Notes: generated from the letters alone by a model not told the origin. A DNA stretch of 64,000 nt from an uncultured Nitrososphaerota archaeon (GCA_963799845.1 CAWCYI010000004.1:992001-1056000); one strand, 5' to 3'. Counted from the stretch's first letter, positions 33,967 to 61,338 are shown. Numbers and translations: made by a program.

Positions 33967-34195
33967 TCCATTTTCTGAGCTTGCTGAAGATTTGCACTTT
34001 TATCCATGCATAACCTTACCGTTATCGCTAGGTGGTTGTCTTCGGATTGAAATTACCATCATAGTTCAGTTTATTGCATGCTTTCATCGACGCTTTCCAA
34101 ATCTGAGAATCGTCTACATGTCTTAATACGCGAACTAGTAAAATAAATCATCGACTTTGTGCAACTTGCTCTGCAAGTGTTCAAAGCTCTGAAGT

Positions 34196-38914: not shown

Positions 38915-39013
38915 ACGAATCTAATACGAAGGATATTGGTCTTCTTCTCGGATTTGATAATCGTGTCCGGGGGTTAAGTATCTGAAGCGCCTCAACTGTC
39001 CCGTTGAGGAAGT

Positions 39014-39499
39014 TTGGCAGAGAAAGAAAGTTCGAATTCCGATCTATTTCATTTATCGAAGATTCTAGTTCCAACTGATGGCTCCGCAAACGCTAGCCGG
39101 GCTGTGAATGGTGGGATAGATCTCTCAAAAAAGTACGGTTCCGAACTTGTCGTTCTGTGCGTAATACCTTCTCCAACTCTTCTTGTAGAGGCCTCCGTTG
39201 GTCTAGGGATGGCGCCTGGGGGACTGGATTCCTATTACAAGCAGCAAGAAATGAGGGCCAATTATTTCATTGATGAAGCCGTGACCCTTGCCAAGACACA
39301 AGGCATCAAAGTGAGGAGTGAAGTGTCTCGTGCCGACAAGTCGATAGTTGGGGAAATAATTGAGATATCCATTCATGAGAAAATTGACTTGATAGTTATA
39401 GGCACGCGGGGCCTAGGTGGGTTTAGGAAACTGCTTCTAGGCAGCGTTTCAAGCGGCGTTGTAACTAATGCTCAGTGTAATGTTTTGGTCGTCAGATAA
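39014..39499 (+). CDS. Universal stress protein
   Basis: KILVPTDGS...DLIVIGTRGLGGFRKLLLGSVS. Confidence 0.92.
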   Translation: MAEKESSNSDLFHLSKILVPTDGSANASRAVNGGIDLSKKYGSELVVLCVIPSPTLLVEASVGLGMAPGGLDSYYKQQEMRANYFIDEAVTLAKTQGIKVRSEVSRADKSIVGEIIEISIHEKIDLIVIGTRGLGGFRKLLLGSVSSGVVTNAQCNVLVVR

Positions 39500-41658: not shown

Positions 41659-42438
41659 TTACTCTATTATTCTTCTCAGCGCCATCGAAGCAAGCGCGAT
41701 AAATGCGAAAGTCGAGATGAGGAGTACACCAATATCCACTGGAAGATTCGAATAATTTCCAGTCAAAAGCATGGCACGCATGGCGTCAACCACATAGCTA
41801 AGTGGGTTGAACTTTGATACATACTGAAGCCAAGTCGGCATTATGGAAGTTGGATAGATTGCATTGCTTGCGAAGAAAAGTGGCATGGTAATTGCCTGCC
41901 CAATCCCCATCATTCGGTCACGAGTCTTGAAGAACGAGGCGAGCAGCATGGAAAGGCTCGAAAAGCACATTGCAAATAATATGATTACCACGAACACACC
42001 TACAACATCAAACACATCGAACCGGAGGTTCACTCCGATTATCAATGCGAGGGCGAATATTACAACTGCCTGAAACACTCCTCTGATGCTTGCCGCTAGG
42101 GCTTTCCCGATTACGATTGAAGATATACGTGAAGGCGTTGAAAGAAGTTTCGTTAGTAGTCCCATATCCCTCTCCCAGACTATGGTTATGCCGTAGAATA
42201 TTGCCACGAACAGGACAGACTGCGCAAGCACTCCTGGAGTTAGATACTGAAGATACGTGTACCCCGGAGGTGCAAGTCCGTGAACCGCATTGAAGACTTC
42301 TCCGAAGATAAGGAGCCAAAGGAGCGGCTGTATTGTTCGTATCCAGAGCTCGGTGGAATCATGTTTGATTTTCCTTGCCTCCATCTTTGCGATTGTGAGC
42401 GAATCTTCGACTGACTCTACTGCTGCGCTCATAACCAC
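41659..42438 (-). CDS. ABC-2 type permease
   Basis: IQPLLWL, WERDMG, MPTWLQ..NPLSY. Confidence 0.9.
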   Translation of the reverse strand: MVMSAAVESVEDSLTIAKMEARKIKHDSTELWIRTIQPLLWLLIFGEVFNAVHGLAPPGYTYLQYLTPGVLAQSVLFVAIFYGITIVWERDMGLLTKLLSTPSRISSIVIGKALAASIRGVFQAVVIFALALIIGVNLRFDVFDVVGVFVVIILFAMCFSSLSMLLASFFKTRDRMMGIGQAITMPLFFASNAIYPTSIMPTWLQYVSKFNPLSYVVDAMRAMLLTGNYSNLPVDIGVLLISTFAFIALASMALRRIIE

Positions 42439-42441
42439 TTG

Positions 42442-43416
42442 CTACCTTCCAAAGCTCCGCCTTGTGGAGCGCACATCTTGAATTGTCCCCGATTCTAGAC
42501 TCCTCCCTCCGTACTTGAGAAAGACGTCGCCCAATGTCGGTCTAGCAAGAGAAATTGACGCGATTACAATGCCGTTCCTCTCAAGATAATTAACGACAGG
42601 TGCAATCTCTACCTCCCCATTTGCAGTCTGTATCTCAAGCAATCTGTCTTCTGATTTTACTAGCGTACCAATCTCGGTTGGCAAAGTTGAAGGTATCTTT
42701 CCCTCCCTGATCTTGATCGTCAGGATGTCGACGTCCACGGTCCTTTTCAAATCCTCGGGTGAACCGGTTACTGCTATCTTGCCGGAGTTCATGATTGACA
42801 GTCTCTGACATAATTCATTGGCTTCTTCCATATCGTGAGTTGTGATGAGAATCGTAGTTGCGAACTCGGTGCTCAGTCTCTTCACGTAATCCCAAACCTG
42901 CGTCTTGGAAGCAGGATCAAGCCCTATAGTCGGCTCGTCGAGGAAGAGAACTCTTGGTCTGTTAACTAGTGCTTGTGCTATTTCCAGCCGCCTCATCATT
43001 CCCCCAGAATAATGCTTAGCAAGATCATTTGCCCTAGATGTCAAGTCCATGTACTCGAGGGCTTGATCTATTCGCGCATGCCGTTCCTTTTTGTCTACGT
43101 GAAATAACATCGCGAAAATCAGAAGGTTCTCATAACCAGAAAGGTCTCCGTCAACAGAAACAGCCTGAGGAACATACGCTAGCTTTTTCCTGACTTCTCT
43201 CGGCGACTTGATCGCGTCCATCCCCAGTACTCTAATAGAGCCCGAAGTCGGTTTCGCAAGGGTTGTAAGCATCTTTATTGTGGTAGTTTTTCCAGCACCG
43301 TTTGGACCAAGCAGCCCAAAGACCTCCCCTTCTTCGATCGAAAAAGAAATCCCGTCAACTGCTTTTGTACCTTCGCCATAGACCTTTGTTAACGACTCAA
43401 CCTCGATAGCTTTCAA
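42442..43416 (-). CDS. DrrA-type ABC exporter ATPase
   Basis: GPNGAGKTT, YSGGMMRRL, DEPTIGLD. Confidence 0.92.
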   Translation of the reverse strand: MKAIEVESLTKVYGEGTKAVDGISFSIEEGEVFGLLGPNGAGKTTTIKMLTTLAKPTSGSIRVLGMDAIKSPREVRKKLAYVPQAVSVDGDLSGYENLLIFAMLFHVDKKERHARIDQALEYMDLTSRANDLAKHYSGGMMRRLEIAQALVNRPRVLFLDEPTIGLDPASKTQVWDYVKRLSTEFATTILITTHDMEEANELCQRLSIMNSGKIAVTGSPEDLKRTVDVDILTIKIREGKIPSTLPTEIGTLVKSEDRLLEIQTANGEVEIAPVVNYLERNGIVIASISLARPTLGDVFLKYGGRSLESGTIQDVRSTRRSFGR

Positions 43417-43555
43417 TGTTCTCTACAAGACTTGTTGAGCGCAATCATTCTAAAGGGTGAAGACGATCTTCATATGTGAGAATTAGTGGGAATCGGAATC
43501 ATCCTAGGCATTTTATGAAATTCAAGAAAGGCGAAAGTACTCTCTTTTAGACCGG

Positions 43556-44797
43556 TTAATCCCATAAAATTCGAGGTGCCTCAACAGTACAGACATCCTC
43601 GACGGCTTTCATTGTCCTGTTCCTCAACTCATCAAGCCCAATGAACTCTCGCACTAATCTTCCATCTCGGATGAGCGGTTTTAACAAGGGCCTGTATTCA
43701 GCAGAAGGTGATTTTTCATCGAGTGTGACGATATCTTCGAAAGTTTTCTGATTCCGAAATACATTCTTTCTTCCGGAAAGGTCGCCCCTTTTTGTGATGA
43801 GCATCCGCTTTCCATCCTCGCTTTCTTTCTCGACAATCTTGTCGCAAAAATCGATTATCGGAGCGGCCGAAATACCGGCCCCAATTCCAAAACCATCCAC
43901 GAAATCTCTCAATTCTACGACGTCTTGTTCGTCTAAACCACCAGAAACTATTATCTTAACTTCCCCAGCATTCCGGACTTTGAGTTCCCACTTTACTTCT
44001 TGGACTAGTTTCCTCATGTCACCCCTCCTTGAAGTTGGAGTGTCAAGCCTAACTCCGTATAGTTTGTTTCCCAGAGTCTCGTAGGCTTTTATGGCTGCCA
44101 TCTTTTCGTCGCTCAGAGTATCAATTAGAGCAATCCGTGGGACTTCGGGTGGTAACGCTTGATCGAAAATTTTCCAGGCTTGAGCTTCATCTCCCACGCA
44201 TAAAATGAAGGCGTGTGGCATCGTTCCGCTAGCCTTCTTATTCATGAGTTTTGCTCCCAGGACATTTGAAACACTAGTTACTCCTCCAATGTATGAGCAT
44301 CTTTCGACCAGAGGTGCAAGCGCTGGGTGAACGCGCCGGGTACCGAAGCTGATAATCATTCTGCCTCTCGCAAGATGAACAAGTCTTGCTGACTTCGTAC
44401 AGATTCCACTAGACTGAGCCAGCAAACCTAGTATCGGGTTTTCATAAATTGCAATATCTTGGTATCGACCTATTATTCTTAGAACAGGCTCATTCACTGC
44501 AACTGTCGGGTCAGTAAGAAAGACTTCTCCCTCTTCCATAGCATCGACATCCACCGGAAGACCTTGCAAGAGTTTTGCAATTTCGTAAATGCCACAAGCA
44601 ACGGCCCAACGTGCACCGAAAGGATTCGTTCTTGTAAAGACCTCCATTGTTACTTTCGGATTTATGCCAGCAAATCTCAGAGCGTCACGAGCATATTCAA
44701 AGTAGATGTCCGTCGTGAGTCCATCTTTGATCTCTTGCTCCTTCGGCATCCAGAAGAGACGGTCATGGAGATCGCTTCTTAGATTGCTATCAATCAT
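43556..44797 (-). CDS. pncB: Nicotinate phosphoribosyltransferase
   Basis: TTDIYF, SFGTRR, GTMPH, LIDT, GVRLDT, VSGGL. Confidence 0.88.
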   Translation of the reverse strand: MIDSNLRSDLHDRLFWMPKEQEIKDGLTTDIYFEYARDALRFAGINPKVTMEVFTRTNPFGARWAVACGIYEIAKLLQGLPVDVDAMEEGEVFLTDPTVAVNEPVLRIIGRYQDIAIYENPILGLLAQSSGICTKSARLVHLARGRMIISFGTRRVHPALAPLVERCSYIGGVTSVSNVLGAKLMNKKASGTMPHAFILCVGDEAQAWKIFDQALPPEVPRIALIDTLSDEKMAAIKAYETLGNKLYGVRLDTPTSRRGDMRKLVQEVKWELKVRNAGEVKIIVSGGLDEQDVVELRDFVDGFGIGAGISAAPIIDFCDKIVEKESEDGKRMLITKRGDLSGRKNVFRNQKTFEDIVTLDEKSPSAEYRPLLKPLIRDGRLVREFIGLDELRNRTMKAVEDVCTVEAPRILWD

Positions 44798-44813
44798 TTA
44801 GGCCATCCACACA

Positions 44814-44839
44814 TTGACAATTCCGCATTTTGACAATTC
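44814..44839. repeat. Direct repeat TTGACAATTC x2 (each containing the palindrome TTG-A-CAA) upstream of pncB
   Basis: 44814-44823 and 44830-44839. Confidence 0.7.
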
Positions 44840-44840
44840 G

Positions 44841-45344
44841 TTATCTTCGTATGATACTGCGTGGAGGACTTAGCTTTACTACGGCCAATATCGAATCGAC
44901 AGTTTTTTCGGTCGACAATGGTTTTTTCAAAAACAATTCTATACCCGTGTTCTCTACTTCCCTAGAGACCCCCTCGTTTCCAAGGATCATGATTATTTTT
45001 GTCGCGGATCTCTTTGACAATATTTGCTTGGCAGCCTGTATACTATCGCCAATGGTGTAATCCAATACGACGACGTCTGGGTGTTTCTTGGAAGATTCTG
45101 AAATGGTTGATCTTACACCTCTTGTGACAATTACTGTGCAACCTGCTAACTTAAGTGCAAGTGAGAGAGAGTCAGACTCAGATTGATTCAAAGCTAGGAG
45201 AACGGTGTGATGTTTGGTCAAACTGTCTGACTGACCCCCGTCGGAGAGAATCGAACCTCTCTCTTGTTTAGGACGAGAAAATGACACATTTTTGTCGACA
45301 GTCGGGACAGTATCTTTCTCGTCAGAGGAAGTATTGTCAGCCAT
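44841..45344 (-). CDS. Atypical stand-alone receiver (REC) domain protein
   Basis: HPDVVVLD...KIIMI...FLKKPL; the acidic pair after beta1 is absent. Confidence 0.65.
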   Translation of the reverse strand: MADNTSSDEKDTVPTVDKNVSFSRPKQERGSILSDGGQSDSLTKHHTVLLALNQSESDSLSLALKLAGCTVIVTRGVRSTISESSKKHPDVVVLDYTIGDSIQAAKQILSKRSATKIIMILGNEGVSREVENTGIELFLKKPLSTEKTVDSILAVVKLSPPRSIIRR

Positions 45345-45538
45345 TTCGCAATAACACCTCTTCGGTGCTGTTCTTATTAGATCAAGCAATAAGAACACAG
45401 CAGACGATTATCAATCCTGAGAATTATTGCACCTGAATCTTGATTATGAACAAAAGTTAGAGCAAAGACTGGCCGGTTTGGATTTCGGGCTCTCGGGTCG
45501 CTGCAGTCTTTTTGGTCCGAATATGCTGAGAGTCATTT

Positions 45539-46372
45539 CTAAAATGAGGAATACGCAAACGCTTCGACTAGATCTCTTGCAGTGACGATTCCGACGATCT
45601 TGCCAGAATGAATCAAAGGGAGTCGCTTGATCCGACGCTCGATCATTATTTTTGCAGCATCTAGACCGTCAATCCCTTGCTCGGCTGTAATCAGATAGTG
45701 AGTCGAATAATTCTCGACACTCGAATGCATGGTGAATTCTGAAGTCAGAATTGATCTGAGAAGGTCTCTTTCCGTAAAAATTCCCCTCGAAAATCTCCCT
45801 TCAGAAACTATGACGCTGCCGACGCGCCTCTTGTCCATAAGTTGGACGATTAATTCCACTGTCGACCGAGGCCCTTCCTCATAAACAATCCCGGAATAAG
45901 CACTCTTGAAATCAAAACGTCTTCCGAATTTGCCTATCTCTCTGACGATATCAGTTGCAGTAACGATGCCAATTGGTTTTTCACTTTCGAAAACCACCAG
46001 CCTCCCCTTTTTCTCGCGCATGATCTTGGCGGCGTCTCCTAGAGTTGCATCGGGACTCAGAATGTTGAATGATGGTGTCATGACTTCCGTGAGAACCGGT
46101 TCCTCAAGTTTCCTTTGACGAGCAAGCACTTTGCTCAAAAGATCACGCTCGGTGAAGATGCCAACCGGCCGTCCACCGTCCTCCACTATCACGCTTCCTA
46201 TCCCGTACTCAACCATCGACTTCACAGCCCAGCTGACATTTGAGCTGGAGTGGCCCAGAACAAGTTTCTTGCTCATGAATTGCTGGGCGGTAATAATTTG
46301 GGATATCATAAGTGAAATAGACGAGAGGCTATCCATTATATTGATAGGACGATTCTCAGAATTGAGAATCAA
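45539..46372 (-). CDS. Four-CBS-domain protein (start uncertain)
   Basis: GIFTERDLL x2, GIVTATDI, IKRLP..GIVTARDL. Confidence 0.9.
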   Translation of the reverse strand: MILNSENRPINIMDSLSSISLMISQIITAQQFMSKKLVLGHSSSNVSWAVKSMVEYGIGSVIVEDGGRPVGIFTERDLLSKVLARQRKLEEPVLTEVMTPSFNILSPDATLGDAAKIMREKKGRLVVFESEKPIGIVTATDIVREIGKFGRRFDFKSAYSGIVYEEGPRSTVELIVQLMDKRRVGSVIVSEGRFSRGIFTERDLLRSILTSEFTMHSSVENYSTHYLITAEQGIDGLDAAKIMIERRIKRLPLIHSGKIVGIVTARDLVEAFAYSSF

Positions 46373-46463
46373 AAATCACCGTTTGAGTCGACGTATTCAA
46401 TCACAGAGGGTGAAAACGAAGGGCGACAAAACTGACATTAAAGACGATCCTTTGTTTGACTTT

Positions 46464-48197
46464 CTAACCTGCGACCAGCACCGCCGATTTGAGCGTTTTC
46501 AAGAAATCTCCTAATTTTCTTGAATTGAGTATGTCACTAGCGGTAGCCCAGCCTCTTCTTGCCTGGGCTATCCCAAGCTCCAAGAAATGAAAGTTGATCT
46601 TCGCATGAGAATCCGAACTAATGCCGAGTTTGACGCCAATTTCGATTGCTTTCTTTATGTGTTCGTCCTTCAAATCCAATCTGTCCGGATACGAGTCGAT
46701 ATCGAGCATCGTACGATTTGCTTTCGCCGCTTCCATAACTTTCTCGATGTCGAGTTCTATTGGATCCCTCTTCTGCAGCTGCCTTGCAGTAGGATGATAG
46801 ATAATGTCGACATCTGGATTTTCAATCGCTGCTATCACTCTGCGAGTCATTTCTTCCTTGGTCAGGTTAAAGTGTGAATGAACGGCCGCCCCAACCACAT
46901 CTAGTTTCCGGAGAGCCTCGCTGGCAATGTCCACGGTTCCATTCTTCATTATATTCAACTCAACACCCTTCAGAATGCGAAATCCACTAAGTTGTTTATT
47001 CAATTCGTCAATCTCCGCCGCTTGTTTTGAAAGCATTTTCTCATCCAATCCTCCTGTCATGGCAAGGGACCGCGAGTGGTCAGATATGACAATGTATTCC
47101 AATCCTATCTTCATCGCTTCTTCAGCCATTTCCTTGATGGAATTTGAGCCATCCGTCCATGTGGAGTGAACTTGTAAATCACCTTTCAATTCATCGTAGC
47201 CAATCAGTTTTGGTAATTCGTTTTTCGCTGCCGCTTCGATCTCGCCGGTATTCTCCCGGAGCTCTGGAGGTATCCACGAGAGTCCAAGTTTTTGATAAAC
47301 CTCCTCCTCGTCCTGCCCCGCGATCATTCGAGTTCCATGAAACAGACCGTACTCATTCAACTTCCATTTCTTCTCTTGGGCGATTTTTCGAAGTGCAACG
47401 TTGTGATCCTTGTTGCCAGTGAAATATTGTAGAGCAGCGCCAAAGCTTCCGATCGGAACAACTCGCAGATCCGCGTGTAGTCCTGTGTCCAGCTTCACAG
47501 AAGACTTTGTCTCTCCCTTCATCATGACCTCAGCGACTTCTGGCATCCCCACGAAGAAATTCATGACTTCTCCAGGTCTCTCAGAGGCAACGAGAAAATC
47601 GACATCACCAATAGTTTCCTTCATCCTCCGAACTGATCCTCCTACCATGACCTTGCTTACTTCATCATGATTCTTCAGACGGTTCTCGATCTCTCGAATG
47701 AATGCGAGATTGAAACCCAGGATGAATCGCCCCTTACTTTTCTTCGCAAACTCGATTCCTTTCAGGATGTTCTGCTCGGTCTTTTCTTGAAAGCCTGGAA
47801 TCTTGCACACTTTGTGCGTGGTGCAAGCACTCTCGAGATCGTCTATATTCCTGATTCCAAGTTCTTGCCATAGAGTTTTGATCTTTTTTGGACCGAGCCC
47901 TTCCACTCCGGAAAGACTACCAAGATCAACGGGGACTTTCTCTTTCAGTTTCTCGTAGTAATCGAGTCGTTCAGTTTTGATGAGCTCTTCAATTTTCTCC
48001 GCTATACTTTCGCCAATTCCAGGAATCTCCATGAGTGCCTTAATTCCGCCTCTTCTGTATACGTCCTCGACATCCTCCTCCAAAGCCTCGATTGATCTAG
48101 CAGCTTTTTCATAGGCTCTTGGCTTGAATTGAATGTCGTCCATTTCCAAAAGGATTGCAATGTTGTTTAGAATGTGTTCGACTTCCCAGTTTCTCAT
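46464..48197 (-). CDS. polX: DNA polymerase X with PHP exonuclease domain
   Basis: HhH IPGIGE, GSVRR..TIGDVDFL, YFTGNK.HN, LNEYG; PHP motifs VHS, SDH, SSDSH. Confidence 0.93.
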   Translation of the reverse strand: MRNWEVEHILNNIAILLEMDDIQFKPRAYEKAARSIEALEEDVEDVYRRGGIKALMEIPGIGESIAEKIEELIKTERLDYYEKLKEKVPVDLGSLSGVEGLGPKKIKTLWQELGIRNIDDLESACTTHKVCKIPGFQEKTEQNILKGIEFAKKSKGRFILGFNLAFIREIENRLKNHDEVSKVMVGGSVRRMKETIGDVDFLVASERPGEVMNFFVGMPEVAEVMMKGETKSSVKLDTGLHADLRVVPIGSFGAALQYFTGNKDHNVALRKIAQEKKWKLNEYGLFHGTRMIAGQDEEEVYQKLGLSWIPPELRENTGEIEAAAKNELPKLIGYDELKGDLQVHSTWTDGSNSIKEMAEEAMKIGLEYIVISDHSRSLAMTGGLDEKMLSKQAAEIDELNKQLSGFRILKGVELNIMKNGTVDIASEALRKLDVVGAAVHSHFNLTKEEMTRRVIAAIENPDVDIIYHPTARQLQKRDPIELDIEKVMEAAKANRTMLDIDSYPDRLDLKDEHIKKAIEIGVKLGISSDSHAKINFHFLELGIAQARRGWATASDILNSRKLGDFLKTLKSAVLVAG

Positions 48198-48524
48198 ATC
48201 ATTTCACAAAATGCACTCGGCAATCATTTCAACACGTTTTCACTAACATACTGACGAAATTCAAATTCTTCCAATGAATGCGCTCTCAAAGGAGATGACA
48301 TTCTCACTCTCGAAAGAAGGGACAACATTACCAGAAGATTCCCGAAAAATCCTACTGCGACTTTTTCCGTCTTTGATGCTACTCAGGTAAGCACCTCATG
48401 TATGACGAACAATCAAATGTTTGTCGGACAAATCCGCAAACAGCGCACCTTAATTCCGGTCTCATCTTCACCTTTTTCATCGGTTTGTTACAATGGTAAC
48501 TTGCAGTCAAATTCTATTTCTCAC

Positions 48525-48941
48525 CTAAACAATGCAATCTATCGGCAGTGGCGGCTCAAAATCGGTATCAGGTGCTGCTTCTTCCTTCTCGGCCAAATTC
48601 GCAGGTTTCCTCTTACTCAACAGTACGCTCGATCCGAAGACAATCGCAAGAATAACCGCGAACCAAAACAGATAGTCGAGAATCATATTTGGGGCGTTCG
48701 TGCCAATTGGAACGACGTCAGCGCTTGAGGGACAGACCAATGTTGAATGTGTCTGCGGCGGACTAAGGGACTCTCTATTCATTGAATAAAAAAAGGGCTC
48801 AGGAAAACCATACTCGGTTCCGGCTACACAAGGTTGGCCATTCCAGCGAACAGTATGAGTTCCAGAAACAAGAAAGGAACTTAACAAAAGCAGAACTCCA
48901 ACGCCACAAGAGAGAAGTGGCAGCTTAACGTAGTTTCTCAA
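48525..48941 (-). CDS. Hypothetical membrane protein
   Basis: N-terminal TM, YGFP, second TM. Confidence 0.55.
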   Translation of the reverse strand: MRNYVKLPLLSCGVGVLLLLSSFLVSGTHTVRWNGQPCVAGTEYGFPEPFFYSMNRESLSPPQTHSTLVCPSSADVVPIGTNAPNMILDYLFWFAVILAIVFGSSVLLSKRKPANLAEKEEAAPDTDFEPPLPIDCIV

Positions 48942-49360
48942 TTCAACTTCACTTGAGATGGATCTTGCAGCGTTCGTGCATATATCTTGAGAAGACGATT
49001 ATCAAATTTGGTAATACCTCAGCCCTTCTCGTCTGCTATGGTTTGAAGTGTATTCGCGTTATCCATCCAATCCGTCCAAGGGATCTTTGCCCGTTAAGAG
49101 GGCTTTCGATCCGCGTCTAAACAATTTTCGCCAGATCGTCTTCTGGTTTGATCTCCCCTGCGCACCTTATTTCTTTTTAGGATCTTCGTCGTCGACACAA
49201 AATTAGGATAAATCACTCGCGATTTTTTCGCCGGCGTCACTTAGAGGACACGTATTGAAAGCATCCCGTATCATATGACATCTCGACGCCGGCATGCTTA
49301 ACGCATTTGAGAAACCTGTTGACTTGGATTAATTCAAGAAACAAAAAGTATCTGTCGTAA

Positions 49361-50042
49361 TTAAGCTTGAACAACGTTTCCCGGATTCTTTGGTCGTGTC
49401 CTTCTCTCGGTTAGATCAATTTCTTTCAGTGCGTTTTTCACTTCATTGTCTTCTACTTGTTCAAACCGTTCATAGAACTCGCCTATTGCATAGAATGGTT
49501 CGGGAGTCTCAAGACAAATTACTTGGTCTGCCACACTTGAGAGCCGCCCAACTGTTTCGGATGGAGCCACTCCTAATGCAAGAATAATTTTCGCTGGTTT
49601 TTTCCTCTTAACAGATTCGATTGCCGCCAGCATTGTATTCCCAGTCGCTACTCCGTCGTCCACAATTATTACGGTCTTTCCTGTGAGATCTGGATACGGC
49701 CTCTCTCCCCGATATTTTTGCATCCTATCTGTAATTTCTTTTTTTTGCCTCAGCTGATTCTTCTTTCAGGTACTCTTTGCTTATTCCGTATTCTCTCACG
49801 ATATTTTCGTCTAAAATCAGCTCACCATCTTGAGTAACCGCTCCTATGGCGAACTCCTCCTGACCTGGAAATCCTATCTTCCTCGTGATTACGAGATCCA
49901 GCTTGGCTCCGAGAGAAAGTGCAATTTCTTTTGCAACCGGTACGCCTCCTCGTGGAATCGCCAGCACAATCGGATTCTTGAACTTCATTCCAATAATCCT
50001 GTCGGCAAGAAGTTTGCCTACTTCAGTTCTATCACGAAACAA
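49361..50042 (-). CDS. Phosphoribosyltransferase (Rv0571c/Rv2030c N-terminal type; indel in an A-run near 49740)
   Basis: FRDRTEVG, LAIPRGGVPVA, RKIG.P..EFAIGAV, IVDDGVATG, FYAIGEFY..FEQV. Confidence 0.88.
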
Positions 50043-50049
50043 AGTTTTC

Positions 50050-50709
50050 TCACAGATACTCCTCAAACCAATTTGAAGCATGCCTTGCTACTTGAGCAAG
50101 TGTTCCGGGCTCTTCGAAGAGATGAGTTGCATGAGGGACGACAATCAGTTTCTTTTTCCTAGAGGCTATCAGAGCCAATGCAGAACGATTCAATTCGAGG
50201 ACCTCTTCATCATTTCCTCCAACAATCAGAAGAGTTGGTACGTTCACTCGAGCAAGATGGGAGCCTGCCATGTCAGGTCTACCTCCTCTTGAGACAACAG
50301 CGCAAACTTCATTCGGCCCTAAATCGGCTGCCGCTCTGAGCGCCGCTGCTGCGCCGGTGCTCGCTCCAAAATACCCCACTCGAAGTAAACGTTTCTTGAT
50401 GTTATGTTTGACCCAGTTCGATGTATCTTCAAGCCTCTTTGTGAGCAGGTCGATGTCAAACCTCGTCTCATAATTCTCGTCCTCATTCTCCGTCAGAAGG
50501 TCGAAAAGCAGGGTGCCGAATCCAGAATCTTGAAGAACTTCAGCAACGTATCGGTTTCTCGGACTGAGTCTACTACTTCCGCTTCCATGGGCGAAAATCA
50601 CCAAACCCTTCTTGTTCGAACGTGGCTCGACCAGATCTCCGTGCAAAGTCGTGGAATCGATTCTAATTGTTACTGATGTATTGGCGGATCCTTGCATTTC
50701 TTTTCCCAT
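50050..50709 (-). CDS. Dienelactone hydrolase-family alpha/beta hydrolase (Rv0571c C-terminal type)
   Basis: FAHGSGSSRLSPRN, GYFGASTG, VSRGGRPD, ATHLFEEPG. Confidence 0.9.
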   Translation of the reverse strand: MGKEMQGSANTSVTIRIDSTTLHGDLVEPRSNKKGLVIFAHGSGSSRLSPRNRYVAEVLQDSGFGTLLFDLLTENEDENYETRFDIDLLTKRLEDTSNWVKHNIKKRLLRVGYFGASTGAAAALRAAADLGPNEVCAVVSRGGRPDMAGSHLARVNVPTLLIVGGNDEEVLELNRSALALIASRKKKLIVVPHATHLFEEPGTLAQVARHASNWFEEYL

Positions 50710-50751
50710 ACTTCCCGATCCGATCCTTTGATGTTACGAACTATTTCCGCC

Positions 50752-51099
50752 TCAGCATGTCAAGTGCAGAACGGCGTTCGTTTCCTCAGGGTTCTTCATC
50801 AACTGAGCAATAGCCTCCGACGTTGGGAGGATGGACAACTCGATTTTGCGACGCTTAGCTTCTCTCTTGACTTCTTCCATTACTGGAAGGGCTCCACCAC
50901 CAGTTCCGATCACCAAGTGATTACACTTCCAAGGTATCTCCTCTTCTAGGGAGAGTGGAGTATGGCCAAAGGCATCACGAAACTTCTTGGATTGCTTCTT
51001 TTTGCGCTTGAATACCTTCCCACGATCTATAACGACATCGTGATCATATTTGATCCCATTAATGCAGATTGAACCAAAGGAAAATTCTTCAAATTGCAT
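50752..51099 (-). CDS. MTH938/NDUFAF3 family protein
   Basis: FSFGSI.ING..Y.HDVVI, LVIGTG, AVLHLTC. Confidence 0.85.
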   Translation of the reverse strand: MQFEEFSFGSICINGIKYDHDVVIDRGKVFKRKKKQSKKFRDAFGHTPLSLEEEIPWKCNHLVIGTGGGALPVMEEVKREAKRRKIELSILPTSEAIAQLMKNPEETNAVLHLTC

Positions 51100-51295
51100 T
51101 GCGCTTCACTCGCGTTGACATTGCAACATTCGTTCGACCGATATGCGAACTGCACGAGTCGTATTTAATGATCGGGCACGATTTTCAGAGTTGGGAATCA
51201 TACCTTCTTAAGAAGGAGGCATTTCAGTGCTCGAACGATAATAGAAAACAAGGCCTTATCTGAATCTTGGATGAAAATGTCTATACGTGCACAAC

Positions 51296-52279
51296 TTAAT
51301 TGCGAACTATCGCTTCAAAACAACCTTCGGATTTCTTCAGAACTAATCCAGTACCAAGCTCCGCGCATAATTGGCGCATCTTGTTTCCTATCAATCGAAT
51401 CTCCAGTCCTTTAACAAGATTTGCTTGAAACTTCTCAATCCTAGTTGGATAGAGTTCTATCCTATCGATTTTATCGTCTTCGCCTTCTAATGAGAATACA
51501 AAAGACTCGTCGTTGCGTTCGACTGGATCAATAGCGTAATCATCGATGAAATCACCGGTGCAGTAAAGAATCGGCCGACGCTTGAAAATCTCAATTCCTC
51601 TGAAAACATGGCCGGAGTGCCCGAACACAATATCTGATCCAGCTTCCACCAAAGCATGTGCAAATCGAGTGCGCTCCTCTGGCGGCTCATATCCCCAGTT
51701 TGGTCCCCAGTGAGCGGAGACTATGAGTAAATCGACCGACTCTTTGGAGCGTTTGACAAGATCTAGAAAGCGAACTGACCGCTCATCCGTCAACTCGGAT
51801 GGGACAAAGAGTACTCCACGTCTGATGGATGTGGCTTCCCACTCAGGTTCGTTGTCCGTGAAAGCAACGACACCAATTTTCTTATGATGAGTATTCAGAA
51901 GTGCGAGTCGTTCTGCTTCGTTTAGGGAACTGCCCAGGCCAGCATGCTTGATGTTCGCGTTATCTAGTAGTCTCAACATGTCTTCAGCAGCTTCATAACC
52001 GTAATCTAACGAATGATTGTTGGCTGAAGAGATCACATTGATATCTCCAGCGGACAGAACTCTGACATTCTTGGCGTCTGAACGAAAGTGGAATTCCTTT
52101 ACTGTTGCAGACCATGGTTTTCCTATGTTAGAAATCACGCACTCTAGGTTGCACATTCGAATGTCGGCGGAATGAAAAAGAGAGAGTGTGTTGCCCCACG
52201 GATAGTCTGGTGATCTCTGTCTTAGAACTTCATTGACAAGTCGACCCAGCATGACATCACCGACCAATACAATTCGCAT
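51296..52279 (-). CDS. CapA (PGA_cap) family metallophosphatase-fold protein
   Basis: VGDVMLGR, NLEC, ANNHSLDYG, HWGPNWG, GHSGH, GDFIDDY. Confidence 0.9.
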   Translation of the reverse strand: MRIVLVGDVMLGRLVNEVLRQRSPDYPWGNTLSLFHSADIRMCNLECVISNIGKPWSATVKEFHFRSDAKNVRVLSAGDINVISSANNHSLDYGYEAAEDMLRLLDNANIKHAGLGSSLNEAERLALLNTHHKKIGVVAFTDNEPEWEATSIRRGVLFVPSELTDERSVRFLDLVKRSKESVDLLIVSAHWGPNWGYEPPEERTRFAHALVEAGSDIVFGHSGHVFRGIEIFKRRPILYCTGDFIDDYAIDPVERNDESFVFSLEGEDDKIDRIELYPTRIEKFQANLVKGLEIRLIGNKMRQLCAELGTGLVLKKSEGCFEAIVRN

Positions 52280-52342
52280 AAAACGATCAAACCTGACTCT
52301 TATGATTTAGTTGAGTTATTCGTAAAGTGGTCAAGCGAAAAT

Positions 52343-52471
52343 TCATTGGCCCGGACCGTCAGCCTGATAGATCCTATTGCAGATGCATCCCCTGCATGTG
52401 CATCGTTTCATGGTGCATTCTGAAGCGCTCATGTGACCACATTGGCTGCAATGCTTTTTTTGGTTGTTCAT
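52343..52471 (-). CDS. Unannotated 42-aa Cys/His-rich microprotein
   Basis: Manual translation MNNQKKHCSQCGHMSASECTMKRCTCRGCICNRIYQADGPGQ*; ATG 11 nt after the RNR stop, same strand. Confidence 0.6.
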   Translation of the reverse strand: MNNQKKHCSQCGHMSASECTMKRCTCRGCICNRIYQADGPGQ

Positions 52472-52482
52472 ACTAATATCGC

Positions 52483-54581
52483 TCAATAAGGGCAGGTGCT
52501 CCCCACGCACCCTCCGGAATATTCAGAATCAGCTACGACGTGTTTATCTCCATGTTGCTTTTCTAGCGCGTTAATTGTAAGTACCTGTTGAGACTTGCTT
52601 CCGTATCTGTAGACTGTAATTCCTTTGCAAATCAACCGCCAAGCCAGCAAGTAAGAATGCCTAACATCTTCGAGGCTGGCGTTCTGGGGCAGATTTACGG
52701 TCTTTGATACCGCGTTGTCAACATATTTTTGAAATTCTGCTTGAATTCGGACGTGCCACTCCGGAGAAATATCTAGGGCCGTCCTAAAAACATTCTTCAC
52801 ATTGGAGGGAATTTGATCAGAGCCCTGAACCGAGCCAGTTTCGGCAATCTTGAATATAAGATCCGATGAAAAGAAACCGCTTTCAATTGCAAGTTCTTCG
52901 AAGAGCTTATTGACTTCCAAGAGCTTGGTTCCCTCCATAATGTCCCTCACGAATGAAACAGCGAATAGAGGTTCGATTCCTGATGAACAGCCAGCAATGA
53001 TACTTATCGTTCCTGTTGGCGCTATGGTTGTGGTTGTCGCATTCCTCATCGCCTTGTAACCTTCTGCGTACCAAATGCTTTTTTTGAAATTTGGAAATGA
53101 TCCCCTTGACTCAGCTAGTTTCTGCGAAGTATCGTGTGAAGTTCCTTGAATCAATTTCATTAATTTGCGCGCCACCAAGAGCGCGTCTTCAGAATCATAT
53201 TTCACTCTAAGCATGATCAACATTTCCGCAAAACCCATAACACCCAAACCAATTTTTCTATTCGAGAGCGTAATCTTTGAGACTCGATTAAGCGGATATC
53301 TGTTTGCGTCAATTACGTTGTCCAAGAAGTGGATTGAATCGCGGACGACTTTTCGAAGTTTCTCCCAATCTAAGTCTCCATTTTTCACGAATTTTGTGAG
53401 GTTGATGCTCCCCAGGTTGCAGGATTCGTAAGGCAGTAACGGCTGCTCCCCACATGGATTGGTGGCTTCTATTGGCCCGACTCCTGAAGTTGGATTCGCT
53501 CGATTTATTGCATCAATGAATATCAGACCCGGGTCTCCGGTCTCCCAAGCTTTCGAAACAATCATTTCAAATATTTCTGAAGCCGAAATTTTTGCGACAG
53601 CTTTAGAGTTCTCGGATTAACAAGATCAATCTTTTTCCCGTTTAGCACTGCTTTCATGAACTTGTCATCGACGGCTACAGATATGTTGAAGTTTTGGAGA
53701 AATCCTGGTTTTGATTTTGCAGTTATGAATTCCATTATGTCTGGATGGTAGGCTGATAGGATTCCCATGTTTGCTCCGCGTCTTCTACCCCCTTGCTTGA
53801 TCTCCTCAGTGGTTGCATCGAATATCTTCATGAAGGAAACTGGACCGGATGCCACTCCTCCAGATGTTTTCACGTAATCTCCACGCGGTCTCAACCGGCT
53901 GAATGAGTAGCCAGTCCCGCCCCCGCTCTGATGGACTAGAGCGGTTGCCTTGACCGCGTCGAATATGCTAGAGAGATTATCTTCGATAGGAATCACAAAA
54001 CAGGCAGATAGCTGCCCCAACCGGGTGCCCGCATTCATTAGCGTGGGGGAATTCGGTAGAAATTCTAGTTTTGCCATCATGTCATAGAATAAATGTTCAG
54101 TTTCCTGAACATCAGTGGATGAATTGTATCTTTTGTCAACCTCCGCAATCGTACGAGCGACTCGCCTGAACAATTGACTCGGTGTTTCAACGACATTTCC
54201 GTTTTCGTCCTTCTTCAGGTAGCGTCGCTCTAAAACCTTGATGGCGTTCAGTCCCAGCTTGAGGTCGTCGACAACGCCAACAAGCTTTTTGGAGTCTCGA
54301 ATACGTGCTCGCTCATTTCTGTAGAGTATGTACGCTTTTGCGGCACGATCAAACCCATTCTTGATCAAGCAATCCTCTACTATGTCTTGAATATCTTCGA
54401 CCGACGGAATCCGGCTCCGATACTTTGCGTTGAGGTCTGAAACAACTTGATTGGTCAGACTTTCAACTGTGGACTCAGAGTACTGATTCACTGAACGAAA
54501 TGCTTTGCCTAGGGCGTTTGCAATTCTATCTTTGTTGAAAGCCTGGATACGGCCGTTCCTTTTCTTTATCCTAGAAATCAA
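52483..54581 (-). CDS. nrdJ: Class II (B12-dependent) ribonucleotide reductase with ATP cone, NrdZ-like (indel near 53600)
   Basis: ATP cone IKKRNG..SVEDIQD; FLPNSPTLMNAG, SACFV, TNPCGEQPL..CNLGS, IAPTGTIS, C-terminal GGCVGSTC. Confidence 0.93.
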
Positions 54582-54634
54582 CTAAAATTCGCCACTTTTC
54601 CTTTATCGCCAAAGGCCGATGATGAGCAAAAGAA

Positions 54635-55075
54635 TCATTCGAAGATAGTTTGGTATTCAGCTCTTGCAGCCGCAGCAAGCATCGGCTCTTTTCTTGCCTT
54701 CGCACTCAAGAACTTTGCAAAGTCAGTAGTAGTGAGCATTCCGACAACTCGTGAATGGTCTCTAACTGGGAGCCTCCTAATTCCATTCTTTATCATGAGC
54801 TTCGCAGCCTCGGAAACCGGAGCCCGAGGTGAGATAGCAATTACGGGTGTAGTCATGATCTGCGACACTTGGGTCTTTTGGAATGATCTTCCTTCGGCAA
54901 CAACTCTGTGAACGATGTCTCTCTCTGTAACTATGCCAACAAGAATACCTCGATTCATCACAACTAGACATCCGCTGTGAACCTCTTTCATTCTCTCGGC
55001 TGCATTTTTGACGGTTGCATCAGGACGAATGGAATGTATTACATTTTTCGTCATCAGGTCCGTTACATTAACCAT
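54635..55075 (-). CDS. CBS-pair protein (Hrp1/Rv2626c-like)
   Basis: GIVTERDIV, IRRLPV, GMLTTTDF. Confidence 0.9.
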   Translation of the reverse strand: MVNVTDLMTKNVIHSIRPDATVKNAAERMKEVHSGCLVVMNRGILVGIVTERDIVHRVVAEGRSFQKTQVSQIMTTPVIAISPRAPVSEAAKLMIKNGIRRLPVRDHSRVVGMLTTTDFAKFLSAKARKEPMLAAAARAEYQTIFE

Positions 55076-55428
55076 AACCCAAAGACACTCTCCCGTAAGC
55101 AAAGACGGGATTCAGAATAAAGGTGAGCTAGACGATCATCAATAATGAGAACGCAATTTCTCTTGGCAAAACTCAGTTTGTGAAAGAATTACTCAATCAC
55201 GATTGGCTTTTGCCCAAACTGTCTTAATTCAACTAATTCCTCTTTTGCCAATTCATCCAGGTAATGGAGAGCCAACAAGGTATCATCTCTGTTGACAATA
55301 TCAAGTGCCATTTCAAGATTGGTTGTTATCCTGATTTGCAGCTCCTTTTTCAGTATTGATAATCGTCTACCGGACTTAAATCCCCGGGCTATCTTTGCAA
55401 ATCCTTGGAAAAGAGAGAATCATCGGAG

Positions 55429-57289
55429 ATGGCCAAAGTGAGCGATGCCGGTCAAAGTCAGAAAATCCTTGGAATAGATCTCGGAACGACAAATTCTGCT
55501 GGTGCCATAATGGAAGCTGGTCGTGCACTCACGATACCCAGTGCTGAGGGTCCAACTATAGCTGGAAAAATGTTCCCCTCAGTTGTGGCATTTACGAAAG
55601 AAGGACAACTGTTAGTGGGCGAACCCGCAAAGAGACTTTCTGTCTCAAACCCGGAATCTACAATATTTGAAATCAAGAGGAAAATGGGTACCGATTACAA
55701 AGTCAGAGTGGCTGGAAAAGAATTCACCCCACAGCAAATCTCGGCTTTTATTCTTCAAAAGATCAAGAAAGATGCAGAGAGTTATCTTGGATTTCCTATA
55801 AAAAAAACAGTAATTACTGTCCCTGCCAATTTCAATGATAATCAACGCCAAGCTACCAAGGACGCGGGGGAAATAGCGGGGCTTGAAGTAGTAAGGATAA
55901 TCAACGAGCCGACGGCAGCTTCTCTTGCCTACGGTCTTGACAAAGCTGGTAAAGATCTCAAGATAATGGTTTTCAGCTTTGGAGGAGGGACGAACGATAC
56001 AACTCTGATGGACTTTGGTGGAGGAGTCTTCCAAGTCGTTGCGACGAGTGGAGACACGCAAACTGGGGGAACAGACATCGACAGCGCAGTCGTAGAGTAC
56101 CTCATCGAAAGTTTCCGCTCCCAGACTGGCCTCGACCCTCACAACGATGTCACAGCCATGGTCAGATTAAAGGAAGCCGCCGAGAAAGCCAAGATCGAAC
56201 TTTCGAACCTCTTCACAACTGAGGTCAACCTGCCCTTTCTCTTAGCAGATTCGAATGGGCCAAAACATCTGCAGCTCACCATGAGCAGGGCAAAATTAGA
56301 GCAGCTCTCTCTTCCGATTGTGCAAAAAATACGCGAACCAATATTCAAGGTCCTGTCTGACGCAAAGATAGAACCGAAAGATATCGACAAAATAATCCTG
56401 ATTGGAGGGATGACGAGGATGCCATTAGTTCGAAGGACCGTGGAAGAACTGATGGGAAAGGTTGTTGAAAGTGGAGTTGATCCAATGGAGTGTGTAGCCA
56501 TCGGTGCTGCAATCCAAGGAGCCATTCTTGCAGGCGAAGTTCGTGATATCGTTCTCTTGGATATCACTCCCTTGTCTTTGGGGGTGGAGACGCTTGGAGG
56601 CGTGATGACCAGACTCATAGATCGAAACACAACCATTCCGACGAAGAAAAGTGAACTATTCACGACCGCAGCGGACTCTCAGACGGCAGTAACTATTCAA
56701 GTGCTTCAAGGCGAACGGCCGATGGCGTCAGACAATGTTTCACTTGGAATGTTCAACCTCATGGGCATACCTCCAGCGCCGAGGGGGATACCGCAGATCG
56801 AGGTTACATTCGATATTGATGCGAATGGAATCTTGAATGTCGCCGCCAAAGACCTTGCAACCGGAAATCAACAGAGAATAGCCATAACTGCATCGACAAA
56901 GCTTAGCGAAGAAACAAAGTCAAAGATGATTAGAGAAGCCGAGCAATTTGCTGAGCAAGACAAATTCAAGAGGGAAGAAGCCGAGATCCGAAACAATGCA
57001 GATTCTCTACTTTATTCAGCCGAGAAAACAAAGAAGGACCTTGGCGAAAAGATTAGCAAGGAGAATTTGGAACGCCTAGACAAAGTTTCATCAGAACTGA
57101 AACAGAAACTATCAGGAAAAGATGTCAGACTTATCCAAGCTGAAGATGGAAGAGCTCAACAAAGTGTTACAGGATATAGGTACTGCAGCTTATCAAAGAG
57201 TGGGCGAGCAACAGCAACGAAGATCTACAGATCAACCTTCGACTGAAGACAAGAAAGTGATCGACGCAGACTATCAGGTAGTCTCATAA
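55429..57289 (+). CDS. dnaK: Hsp70 chaperone DnaK (indel near 57140)
   Basis: [38 protein letters not shown]; shifted frame ends [11 protein letters not shown] at 57289. Confidence 0.93.
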
Positions 57290-58672: not shown

Positions 58673-58752
58673 CACGTTCTCTTGCAATTTGTTGCCGAAA
58701 ATACATCAGCCTATTATATCGACGTACTTCACACGTGAATCGGTGGTGGAGT

Positions 58753-59172
58753 ATGGCTCTGGTTCAAGAAGTTGAAAGAAAAGATGCGGTCTTGCTTGCG
58801 ATGTCGGACGAATACATGCTAAAGATTTTGTGTTCAATAATGTCTGAAGCAAAATCTGTCGAGAAGATTAGTAGCGAAAATGGGATTCCATTGAGCACTT
58901 GCTACCGGCGGATTCGAGAGCTTCTTGCTTTCAGGTTAGCCAGAATAGAGCGCACGATAATCACCCCTGGAGGAAAAAAATACGAAACTTTTAGAAGTTT
59001 GATTTCTGACGCAAAGGTCAGTTTTTCGGCAGCAGACCTATCTGTTGAGATTACCCCCCTGAAGATTAGTCCCGAAGATAAGTTGCACAACATGTGGAAG
59101 ACGGCGAAAGGGATTGATCAAGAATCGTTAGAGCAGCAATCTCTGTCGGTCCTCGAAGTGAGAGCCCAATAG
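58753..59172 (+). CDS. ArsR-like winged-helix regulator
   Basis: KIL..I..AKSVEKIS.ENGIPLSTCYRRIREL...GKK. Confidence 0.8.
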   Translation: MALVQEVERKDAVLLAMSDEYMLKILCSIMSEAKSVEKISSENGIPLSTCYRRIRELLAFRLARIERTIITPGGKKYETFRSLISDAKVSFSAADLSVEITPLKISPEDKLHNMWKTAKGIDQESLEQQSLSVLEVRAQ

Positions 59173-61336: not shown

Positions 61337-61338
61337 TT

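Follow-up and report, generated by a model that had tools for sequence, protein, structure and literature searches.

Is a block of archaeal genes that resembles a bacterial dormancy locus a functional unit, and if so, is it related to that locus by descent? The question is raised by a 64,000-nucleotide stretch of DNA (here called the window) from an uncultured Nitrososphaerota archaeon (GCA_963799845.1; host genome G000, 4.6 Mb in 9 contigs, 86.7% complete; window G000:C4:992001-1056000). A sequence-only reading of the window had recognized a gene block as the counterpart of the DosR (DevR) locus of Mycobacterium tuberculosis (Rv0570-Rv0574c plus hrp1). For the DosR block (Rv0569-Rv0574c, with Rv2623-Rv2631), the gene list and roles are given in excerpts of PMC3177182, PMC5309233, and PMC4428469. 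Gene calls from an open reading frame (ORF) listing and Pfam/NCBIfam profile scans confirmed that all ten expected genes are present in one orientation, on the minus strand, at window positions 43556-55102. In order of transcription the block encodes a CBS-pair protein, a ribonucleotide reductase (RNR), CapA, DUF498, a dienelactone hydrolase (DLH), a phosphoribosyltransferase (PRTase or PRT), orf138, PolX, a protein with four CBS domains (4xCBS), a receiver-like protein, and a nicotinate phosphoribosyltransferase (NAPRTase, pncB). The genes for a universal stress protein (USP) and a nitroreductase that had been placed 4-5 kb away were found there as well (Table 1).

On balance, we consider it probable that a shared operator defines a regulon whose densest island has this block at its core, in a soil-dwelling, non-ammonia-oxidizing archaeon of the order Nitrososphaerales, that the island serves survival of oxygen and/or energy limitation, and that its likeness to the DosR block arose by repeated recruitment of the same gene families.

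A shared operator heads the units of the block

Comparison of upstream regions yielded a common 13-mer, TTGATAATCGTCT, which occurs in 5 exact copies genome-wide against 0.18 expected. With up to one mismatch there are 28 copies (6.8 expected; 3 in the reversed genome), and with up to two mismatches plus a TATA-like box there are 25, against 1 in the reversed genome. Alignment of 29 sites defined the element as ATT(A/C)TCA-N3-(T)TGA(T/G)(A/G)AT, then CGT(C/G/A)T and, 5-8 nt further on, a TATA-like box; the consensus operator is an 18-bp inverted repeat, ATTATCA-N4-TGATAAT, plus CGTCT. A 24-nt matrix matched 83 sites in G000 at ≥14 bits and 58 at ≥20 bits, the 29 seed sites being counted among the matches, whereas the reversed genome gave 1 and 0, respectively. 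Loci from other organisms contained 1 match in 1.37 Mb and none in 0.87 Mb. A TATA-like box lies at +3 to +18 in 58 of the 83 sites, and an ORF starts 25-80 nt downstream in 54 of them, compared with 24% of random positions.

The sites are concentrated in and around the block. The 49 kb of C4:1,020,000-1,069,000 hold 18 of the 83 sites against 0.9 expected and form the densest such island of the genome. Ten operator copies in the window head units that cover all genes of the block, together with the USP, DnaK, and nitroreductase operon genes; the likely start codon of the CBS-pair gene, for example, lies 55 nt past its operator. These figures bear on the simplest alternative explanation, that common genes have come to lie side by side by chance, with no functional unit and a coincidental resemblance to Rv0569-Rv0574c. 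CBS, USP, and ABC genes are abundant everywhere, which speaks for such an explanation, but neither the ten operator copies ahead of the block's units nor the clustering of sites in the island is accounted for by chance. The operator statistics already largely refute this explanation, and we regard it as very improbable.

The motif was also considered as a general promoter consensus, which was rejected because the 4.6-Mb genome has no more than 83 sites and the order's ammonia-oxidizing families have none. The TrmB-family glycolytic motif of Thermococcales, which serves a multi-operon regulon, is likewise an inverted repeat with TATCA/TGATA-like half-sites beside the TFB recognition element (BRE) and TATA box. 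The operator described here shares the promoter placement and the half-sites of that motif but differs in its 4-nt half-site spacing, in the extra conserved CGTCT, and in its lineage and gene set. No TrmB-type regulator was identified for the operator; the candidates are HTH_20, ribbon-helix-helix (RHH), and AsnC-type genes that themselves carry operators.

Table 1. Genes of the block, neighbouring genes, and operator copies, in window coordinates
Feature	Position	Strand	Profile or score	Remarks
CBS-pair protein, stand-alone	ORF 54635-55102, likely ATG 55075	-	PF00571, 99.8 bits	2 domains
Class II (B12) RNR, accessory second copy	52483-54581; ORFs 53562-54581 and 52483-53565	-	TIGR02504, 281 and 435 bits	
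CapA-like (PGA_cap), cytoplasmic	51296-52279	-	PF09587, 241 bits	metallophosphoesterase fold
DUF498/MTH938-like	50752-51099	-	PF04430, 44 bits	98% identity in L084
DLH-type alpha/beta hydrolase	50050-50709	-	PF01738	highly conserved subfamily
Type I PRTase, orphan	49361-50081; ORFs 49725-50081 and 49361-49723	-	PF00156 on each half	
orf138, predicted membrane protein, 138 aa	48525-48941	-	no family match	44% identical homologue in G157 (L228)
PolX DNA polymerase	46464-48197	-	NF006375, 498.6 bits (cut-off 426)	with PHP 3'-5' exonuclease domain
4xCBS protein	ORF 45539-46372, start probably ATG 46309 or 46276	-	PF00571, 143.6 bits	4 domains
Degenerate single-domain receiver	ORF 44841-45398, likely ATG 45344	-	PF00072, 26.4 bits (cut-off 30.2)	
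NAPRTase, archaeal PRK08662 type	43556-44797	-	NF006415, 454 bits (cut-off 243)	
ABC transporter genes	42442-43416, 41659-42438	-		downstream of operator copy 43461
Nitroreductase	38192-38914	+	profile scan	
USP	39014-39499	+	profile scan	
DnaK	55405-57246	+		divergent from CBS pair
Operator	55130-55153	-	32.1 bits	TATA-like box 8 nt downstream; heads CBS pair, RNR, and possibly CapA
Operator	51176-51199	-	16.4 bits (weak)	heads DUF498, DLH, PRTase
Operator	48993-49016	-	33.3 bits, exact 13-mer	heads orf138, PolX
Operator	46347-46370	-	26.4 bits	heads 4xCBS gene
Operator	45402-45425	-	32.7 bits, exact 13-mer	heads receiver-like gene, NAPRTase
Operator	43461-43484	-	22.5 bits	heads the two ABC genes above
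Operator	55345-55368	+	30.9 bits, exact 13-mer	divergent from CBS-pair copy; heads DnaK
Operator	38943-38966	+	27.6 bits	heads USP and downstream ABC genes
Operator	34092-34115	+	24.4 bits	heads CoxG, amidohydrolase, xanthine dehydrogenase (XDH)-like large subunit (split ORFs), nitroreductase
Operator	28752-28775	+	27.8 bits	heads 597-aa FAD_binding_2 flavoprotein (28823-30616)

The 1.16-kb gap at 48197-49361 was considered as non-coding or mobile DNA, a possibility that was rejected because it holds the operator-led orf138, which has a homologue in another genus. An Rfam search of window 43000-56000 found nothing.

Conservation of the operator and content of the regulon

The exact pattern TCANNNTTGAKRATCGT is present in 18 copies in G000, in four of six congeners (2-10 copies each), and in all five genomes of the sister genus g79 (6-19 each). 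It was absent from the single g80 genome, and the other 28 genomes of the order had 0-1 copies, except one with 4; the reversed-pattern control gave 0-1. The unpublished genome G151 is counted in the tallies of relatives for the RNR, CapA, NrdD, operator pattern, and HTH_20, and no claim hangs on it alone. The operator is kept before the CBS pair (L130, 28.2 bits) and DnaK (24.2 bits) in the congener G153, before DUF498 in L084 (18.8 bits), and before the 4xCBS orthologue in G154 (L129, 24.1 bits) and in the g79 genome G157 (L226, 22.3 bits). A 25.8-bit copy heads DLH-PRTase in g79. G157 has an island in which operators precede the CBS pair, USP, DLH-PRTase (61% and 65% identical), receiver, and 4xCBS genes, and its orf138 homologue is operator-led too, elsewhere in that genome. 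This retention at orthologous promoters across two genera is a further argument against chance juxtaposition. The operator is over-represented, promoter-proximal, palindromic, and kept at orthologous promoters, as expected of an archaeal single-operator regulon, which would also have a cognate regulator and a shared expression response.

The operator-led genes of G000 outside the block include those for an NrdG-like activase and a true class III NrdD (353 bits; G000:C7:32550-34930, L188). A strong NrdD gene was present in two of 41 related genomes, namely G000 itself and G176. With the accessory and housekeeping enzymes described below, G000 has three RNRs. Other operator-led genes of G000 encode two flavodoxins, three USPs, six CBS proteins, a cupredoxin, carbamate-kinase-like and AllG proteins, a PnrA-like nucleoside-binding ABC protein, a Zn-ADH, an SDR, VKOR, two paralogous hydrolases, and small HTH_20, RHH, and AsnC-type regulators. 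The 55 operator-led ORFs scanned in g79 include cytochrome bd subunit I, an 860-aa molybdopterin oxidoreductase, NarJ-like and ApbE proteins, three ferredoxins, five radical-SAM enzymes, carbamate kinase, two carbamoyltransferases, four USPs, and four CBS proteins. The earlier proposal of a low-oxygen or dormancy module is supported insofar as the operator ties the block together and ties it to anaerobic genes; induction by hypoxia is suggested by the gene content.

The same target list can be read as a generic survival kit, the product of a regulon that answers to stress in general (proteotoxic, nutrient, or energy) or to stationary phase and is not tied to oxygen in particular. The targets include DnaK, USPs, CBS proteins, hydrolases, an amino-acid permease, and ABC transporters. 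Furthermore, Rv0571c, the mycobacterial PRT-DLH fusion, marks carbon-starved as well as hypoxic cells in the excerpted account of PMC12090744, and the Sri proteins, archaeal ribosome hibernation factors with four CBS domains, are responsive to energy limitation in the excerpted account of PMC13454478. However, many targets are low-oxygen or oxygen-sensitive functions, namely the class III RNR and its activase, cytochrome bd, the Nar-like enzyme with its NarJ-like protein, the ferredoxins and flavodoxins, and the five radical-SAM enzymes. We therefore consider a purely general stress regulon unlikely, though deserving of serious attention, and continue with oxygen and/or energy limitation as the probable signal.

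The top candidate for the regulator is a 118-aa HTH_20 protein (G000:C4:304534-304887), which is operator-led in both genera. Its phyletic profile is uninformative because paralogues occur throughout the order. One paralogue of this operator-associated protein, 36% identical and with no default Pfam hit, is encoded at window 58735-59172, just downstream of DnaK. Two paralogous operator-led operons (C4:304950-307200, L173, and C8:47050-49430, L190) each encode an RHH/CopG protein downstream of a 190-aa multi-pass membrane protein, and one of the two is divergent from the HTH_20 candidate.

The operator-rich island also extends beyond DnaK. FdrA/AllF-like, AllH, AllG, and carbamate-kinase-like genes are found at window 59777-62440 and in G000:C4:1056001-1072000 (L206), and the same island contains XDH-like, amidohydrolase, and PnrA-type ABC genes. 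This gene set suggests a purine/oxamate fermentation that yields ATP.

Comparison with the mycobacterial DosR locus

The mycobacterial side of the comparison was represented by two Actinomycetes genomes (G379 and G520) rather than by M. tuberculosis sequences. The first of these is assigned to Mycobacterium because it contains PE/PGRS genes. At the level of enzyme families, the archaeal and DosR blocks have in common a NrdZ-type RNR, a PRTase and a DLH, a NAPRTase, a CapA-like protein, a CBS pair, USPs, and a nitroreductase-fold protein; they also share regulon control via repeated promoter-proximal sites and an association with non-replicating survival, which in the archaeon is a predicted one. 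Unlike the DosR block, the archaeal block has its own palindromic operator beside an archaeal TATA box in place of DosR/DosS and the Dev box. As the sequence-only reading had stated, no DosR or DosS is present; scans of the block revealed neither a LuxR-type regulator nor a kinase, and the one two-component relic there is the degenerate receiver. The description of that protein as a pseudo-receiver holds, because its score lies below the PF00072 cut-off and its acidic DD pair is replaced by NQ, so that it lacks the intact acidic pocket of response-regulator receivers; in its G157 homologue, a Lys stands at the position aligned by eye to the acceptor Asp. The archaeal block also differs in adding PolX, DUF498, the 4xCBS protein, and DnaK.

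The RNR of the window has an N-terminal ATP-cone and a Cys-x-Gly-x-x-Cys tail, both in common with the mycobacterial NrdZ-like RNR, and the two window peptides on which its NrdZ-like character had been based are present. It is 51-52% identical to the NrdZ-like RNRs of the two actinomycete genomes (51% for the mycobacterial one), compared with 33-38% to the housekeeping RNR of its own genome. In a tree, the actinomycete pair fell within the archaeal 700-aa group with its joining point unplaced, and the tree has long branches and composition bias. This archaeal affinity agrees with the likeness of NrdZ to archaeal NrdJ in print, where mycobacterial NrdZ is reported to group with archaeal NrdJ and to have a patchy distribution (excerpt of PMC4428469).

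A check for a separate housekeeping RNR, which the sequence-only reading had recommended, located one at C4:97409-98821. It matches the RNR barrel family and, in a further difference from the DosR block, itself aligns with the class II query, which makes O2-independent synthesis of deoxynucleoside triphosphates (dNTPs) a weak rationale for the accessory enzyme here. Of 41 genomes of the order, 35 have an ORF of ~700 aa (G000:C4:95834-96562 and equivalent positions) that shows weak NrdD similarity (55-130 bits); in G000 and several relatives (e.g., G158, G170, and G175) this ORF is no more than a few kilobases from the housekeeping RNR.

The DLH and PRTase are 53-59% and 37-41% identical, respectively, to the actinomycete fusions. 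The two archaeal genes had been read as a split Rv0571c; both families are indeed present and adjacent, but they are not a simple split of the fusion because they run DLH then PRTase, opposite to the PRT-DLH domain order. CapA is 33% identical to the copy beside the actinomycete PRT-DLH gene and 47-53% to Arthrobacter copies. The window pncB, which had been taken as the counterpart of Rv0573c, encodes an enzyme of the PRK08662/QRPTase-fold type and not of the PncB2 type; the look-alike bacterial loci carry PF04095-type NAPRTases that are 25-32% identical to it (28% for the actinomycete enzyme). From these sequences, pncB is best described as an analogue, alike in function, and not an orthologue. 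The CBS pair matches the Rv2626c structure with an E value of 7e-9, and ~29 PDB sequences match better. Assignment of the nitroreductase to the Acg type failed, its NF047509 score being 38 bits against a cut-off of 199.

It is conceivable that one ancestral dormancy locus passed en bloc between archaea and Actinobacteria, in which case the block would be homologous to Rv0570-Rv0574c as a locus. The RNR is the main reason to entertain this idea: NrdZ-like enzymes were matched in just 2 of 401 Actinomycetes genomes sampled (G379 and G520), are this similar to the window's, fall within the archaeal group albeit unplaced there, and are patchy in print as well. The identity of the DLH points the same way. 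Transfer of a whole locus is, however, difficult to reconcile with a pncB of different NAPRTase type, a CapA that is only 33% identical, differences in gene order, strand, and PRT/DLH arrangement, and the patchy distribution of CapA and RNR within the archaeal order, where they are not linked to each other. We judge transfer en bloc to be highly improbable. In our judgement the island is an analogue of the DosR locus and not a homologue, and the sequence-only reading is partly supported.

Recurrence of the gene families across domains

Single-query tblastn was applied to 80 genome loci, each reaching 10 kb to either side of a CapA homologue; the loci came from a wide range of bacterial phyla and from some archaea, and no Mycobacterium was among them. 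The neighbours of CapA were DLH in 17 loci (50-60% identical), PRTase in 10, RtcB and Hsp20 in 8 each, USP in 6-7, the CBS pair in 6, HPF in 5, NAPRT, nicotinamidase, and PolX in 4 each, and LonC and RNR in 3 each. Of seven unrelated window proteins used as controls, six scored 0-1 and the seventh, an ABC ATPase, scored 16. The best replica of the archaeal block (L042, a Thermodesulfobacteriota metagenome-assembled genome) packs RNR-PRTase-DLH-HPF-CapA and, on the opposite strand, USP-NAPRT into 7 kb, and RtcB lies close by. PolX adjoins CapA in L043, L036, and L048 and adjoins USP/PRT-DLH/CapA in L125; PRT-DLH-CapA is co-directional in Parachlamydia and Actinomadura loci; and a natural CapA-PRTase fusion (P0209, 560 aa) exists. 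In the proteobacterial CapA loci L046, L043, and L036, a LonC-type protease, HPF, Hsp20, and a NAPRTase-nicotinamidase pair are recurrent. CapA is also naturally fused to PF22745 (P0235, 451 aa).

The DLH subfamily is 50-61% identical in Actinomycetes, Proteobacteria, and Chlamydiae. It was matched in 126 of the 401 Actinomycetes genomes, a count that takes in the unpublished G216, G222, and G496, and it adjoins a PRTase in 14 of 35 DLH-bearing metagenome contigs. In G379, an island contains HPF, RtcB, archease, a PRT-DLH fusion, WS/DGAT, Hsp20, RNR, a CBS pair, an M50-CBS protease, and USP; in G520, PolX-USP-(PRT-DLH)-CapA and USP-RNR...pncB-DLH lie on separate contigs. A further 40 actinomycete DLH loci were taken from the top DLH rows, leaving out G216, G379, G520, and six rows less than 9 kb from a contig start. 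In these, the PRTase is adjacent in 26, USP occurs in 3, CapA in 2, and PolX, pncB, RNR, and RtcB in none. The firm unit is therefore DLH-PRTase, the PRTase being the only frequent neighbour in the actinomycete loci, and in this respect those loci favour chance juxtaposition. The enrichment of families around CapA in many phyla, where six of seven controls score 0-1, and the near-replicas in L042 and G379 speak against it. The wider association is real but mosaic. Of the conserved cross-domain module that had been proposed, the recurrence of the families together across phyla, far above that of unrelated controls, is upheld; conservation as an operon is not, the sub-blocks being separate.

Stress-linked pairs of PRTase and DLH, sometimes with CapA, thus provide a known system with which the archaeal genes can be compared. 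The adjacent DLH and PRTase genes are the same, and both proteins have solved relatives (1wd5, TT1426, E = 4e-16 for the PRTase; 2o2g, E = 1e-62 for the DLH). The archaeal unit differs in adding DUF498, in running DLH then PRTase, and in carrying the archaeal operator.

The CBS proteins lead to a second comparison. The best PDB matches of both CBS proteins are chains of Methanosarcina acetivorans 70S-Sri complexes. The 4xCBS protein shares with Sri/Dri/HibA the four tandem CBS domains and the stress or energy-limitation setting of its gene, but its likeness rests on matches to 9znf/9zni (E = 1e-15 to 1e-17) that are at the level of generic CBS similarity (e.g., MJ1225). A 'SriC-short' clade is centred on Nitrososphaerales, according to the same excerpt of PMC13454478. 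The 4xCBS protein is a candidate for a ribosome hibernation factor of the Sri kind.

Host, distribution within the order, and assembly quality

The host is placed among the soil-dwelling, non-ammonia-oxidizing members of the order because archaeal AmoA (PF12942) was not found in G000 (86.7% complete) or in three genomes of the family that are 87-96% complete, and because the metagenomes containing the stretch are from soil. PF12942 was detected in two control genomes of the same order. A peat run had a share of 0.06, no evidence of a peat habitat. The closest relatives of the RNR and CapA carry the labels Nitrososphaerales or Nitrososphaerota. The host may belong to Group I.1c/Gagatemarchaeaceae, a name that is a candidate only; the oxygen physiology of this abundant soil lineage is debated, aerobic versus anaerobic, in the excerpted account of PMC10640624.

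The block is not a conserved operon. A synteny check across relatives, which had been proposed, showed that co-location of the whole block is not conserved and that sub-blocks lie apart even in the nearest relatives, an arrangement that by itself would suit chance juxtaposition. CapA-DUF498-DLH-PRTase is retained in L084 and L085, which diverge just downstream of the PRTase; CBS pair-RNR is retained in G153; and CBS...USP-PolX in G154 and pncB in G155 are on other contigs. In L085, from a relative with 91% identity, the sequence after the PRTase block (L085:2540) is homologous to a promoter region that in G000 lies ~21 kb off (C4:1062795), and rearrangement within the island is therefore indicated.

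The RNR and CapA are regarded as accessory because they are patchy among relatives. A cluster-type RNR (≥55% identity) is present in 12 of 40 related genomes, comprising one of six congeners, none of six genomes of the family's other genera, and several other families of the order. CapA was found in three of the 40, two with in-frame stops and one 29% identical, and a sample of 150 further genomes of the phylum gave a single match (31% identity). Among the best 120 of 3721 database matches, CapA is 91% identical to one metagenome protein and then 55-60% to others, which among the matches listed come from Geotalea, Eisenbacteria, Doudnabacteria, Nanoarchaeia, and Nitrososphaerota. At L132 (G172:C44), which belongs to a different family within the order, a CapA homologue that is fragmented by several stops adjoins an intact DLH gene; the CapA-DLH link therefore persists as CapA decays.

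Two genes of the block are split. The PRTase frameshift, a single extra base at 49751, is an assembly error, because the base is missing from independently assembled contigs of two runs (depths 6 and 3) and from the 94%-identical relative L084. In the RNR gene, comparison with an intact 698-aa relative puts the break at 53609/53610, where an A is missing; one spanning contig (depth 3.6) agrees with the window, and another stops exactly at 53608. Intact 698-aa relatives are 88-89% identical, and the congener G153 has an intact gene. Other split genes are the XDH-like large subunit (window 36741-36751) and a USP (G000:C4:330350-332730, L194). With these and the PRTase case, single-base consensus errors are probably common in this assembly.

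A model for the island and its meaning

We propose that a putative dimeric regulator binds the inverted repeat and its CGTCT extension. The site lies 5-8 nt ahead of the TATA-like box, a location from which activators and repressors of archaea influence TBP/TFB recruitment, and the regulator would switch ~60-80 promoters together, with oxygen and/or energy limitation as the likely signal. The island would then provide for a cell that is not growing. Its class II RNR, under tight regulation and with an ATP-cone, could, with the class III RNR elsewhere, supply small dNTP pools, PolX could fill repair gaps, and the NAPRTase could salvage NAD. The CBS-pair and 4xCBS proteins may sense adenylates, and USP and DnaK may protect proteins. 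The nearby ABC, XDH, oxamate-carbamoyltransferase-like, and carbamate-kinase genes may allow purine import and fermentation for ATP. PRTase-DLH-DUF498-CapA would be a cross-domain stress-linked enzyme set with chemistry that is probably dependent on phosphoribosyl pyrophosphate (PRPP). The likeness to the DosR block would reflect the same families being recruited repeatedly, some of them exchanged horizontally, and not one locus by descent.

Several observations weigh against this model. The signal is read from the gene content, and DnaK, the permeases, and the hydrolases fit a general stress regulon equally well. Cytochrome bd, a target in g79, was not found in G000 at 86.7% completeness, and no NrdZ-type RNR, CapA, PolX, or pncB was seen in the g79 loci examined. 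No operator copy in the window is proper to CapA, and this strain's copy of the RNR gene could be a pseudogene. The HTH_20 candidate has no conserved Cys or His, and its family is spread through the whole order. The cross-phylum counts are lower bounds, because single-query tblastn was used, and related genomes are not independent.

Extension to the whole family is a more tentative proposition. It is almost as likely as not that this whole family of soil non-ammonia-oxidizing Nitrososphaerales (possibly Group I.1c/Gagatemarchaeaceae) has an oxygen- or energy-limitation dormancy regulon with one operator, which has independently acquired the enzyme set of the mycobacterial DosR regulon (NrdZ-type RNR, PRTase-DLH, CapA, NAPRTase, CBS proteins, and USPs).

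We found no published description of this operator or of the cross-domain cluster; the archaeal affinity of NrdZ is the one element in print (excerpt of PMC4428469). Hypoxia and dormancy regulons have been well studied in Actinobacteria but barely in archaea. The cis-element defines ~60-80 candidate promoters in an uncultured, abundant soil lineage, and its physiology can therefore be tested by metatranscriptomics. Through the regulon, the orphan PRTase-DLH-CapA set is also seen, in a domain of life other than that of the bacterial examples, together with alternative RNRs, PolX, CBS proteins, and NAD salvage. Such an independent grouping supports a real role for these proteins in non-growing cells and narrows the hypotheses for their chemistry. 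If the family-wide reading is correct, then PRTase-DLH-CapA and the 4xCBS proteins would be core cross-domain components of non-replicating survival, and the regulon would open a direct way to study how this abundant soil lineage deals with oxygen, a matter of dispute.

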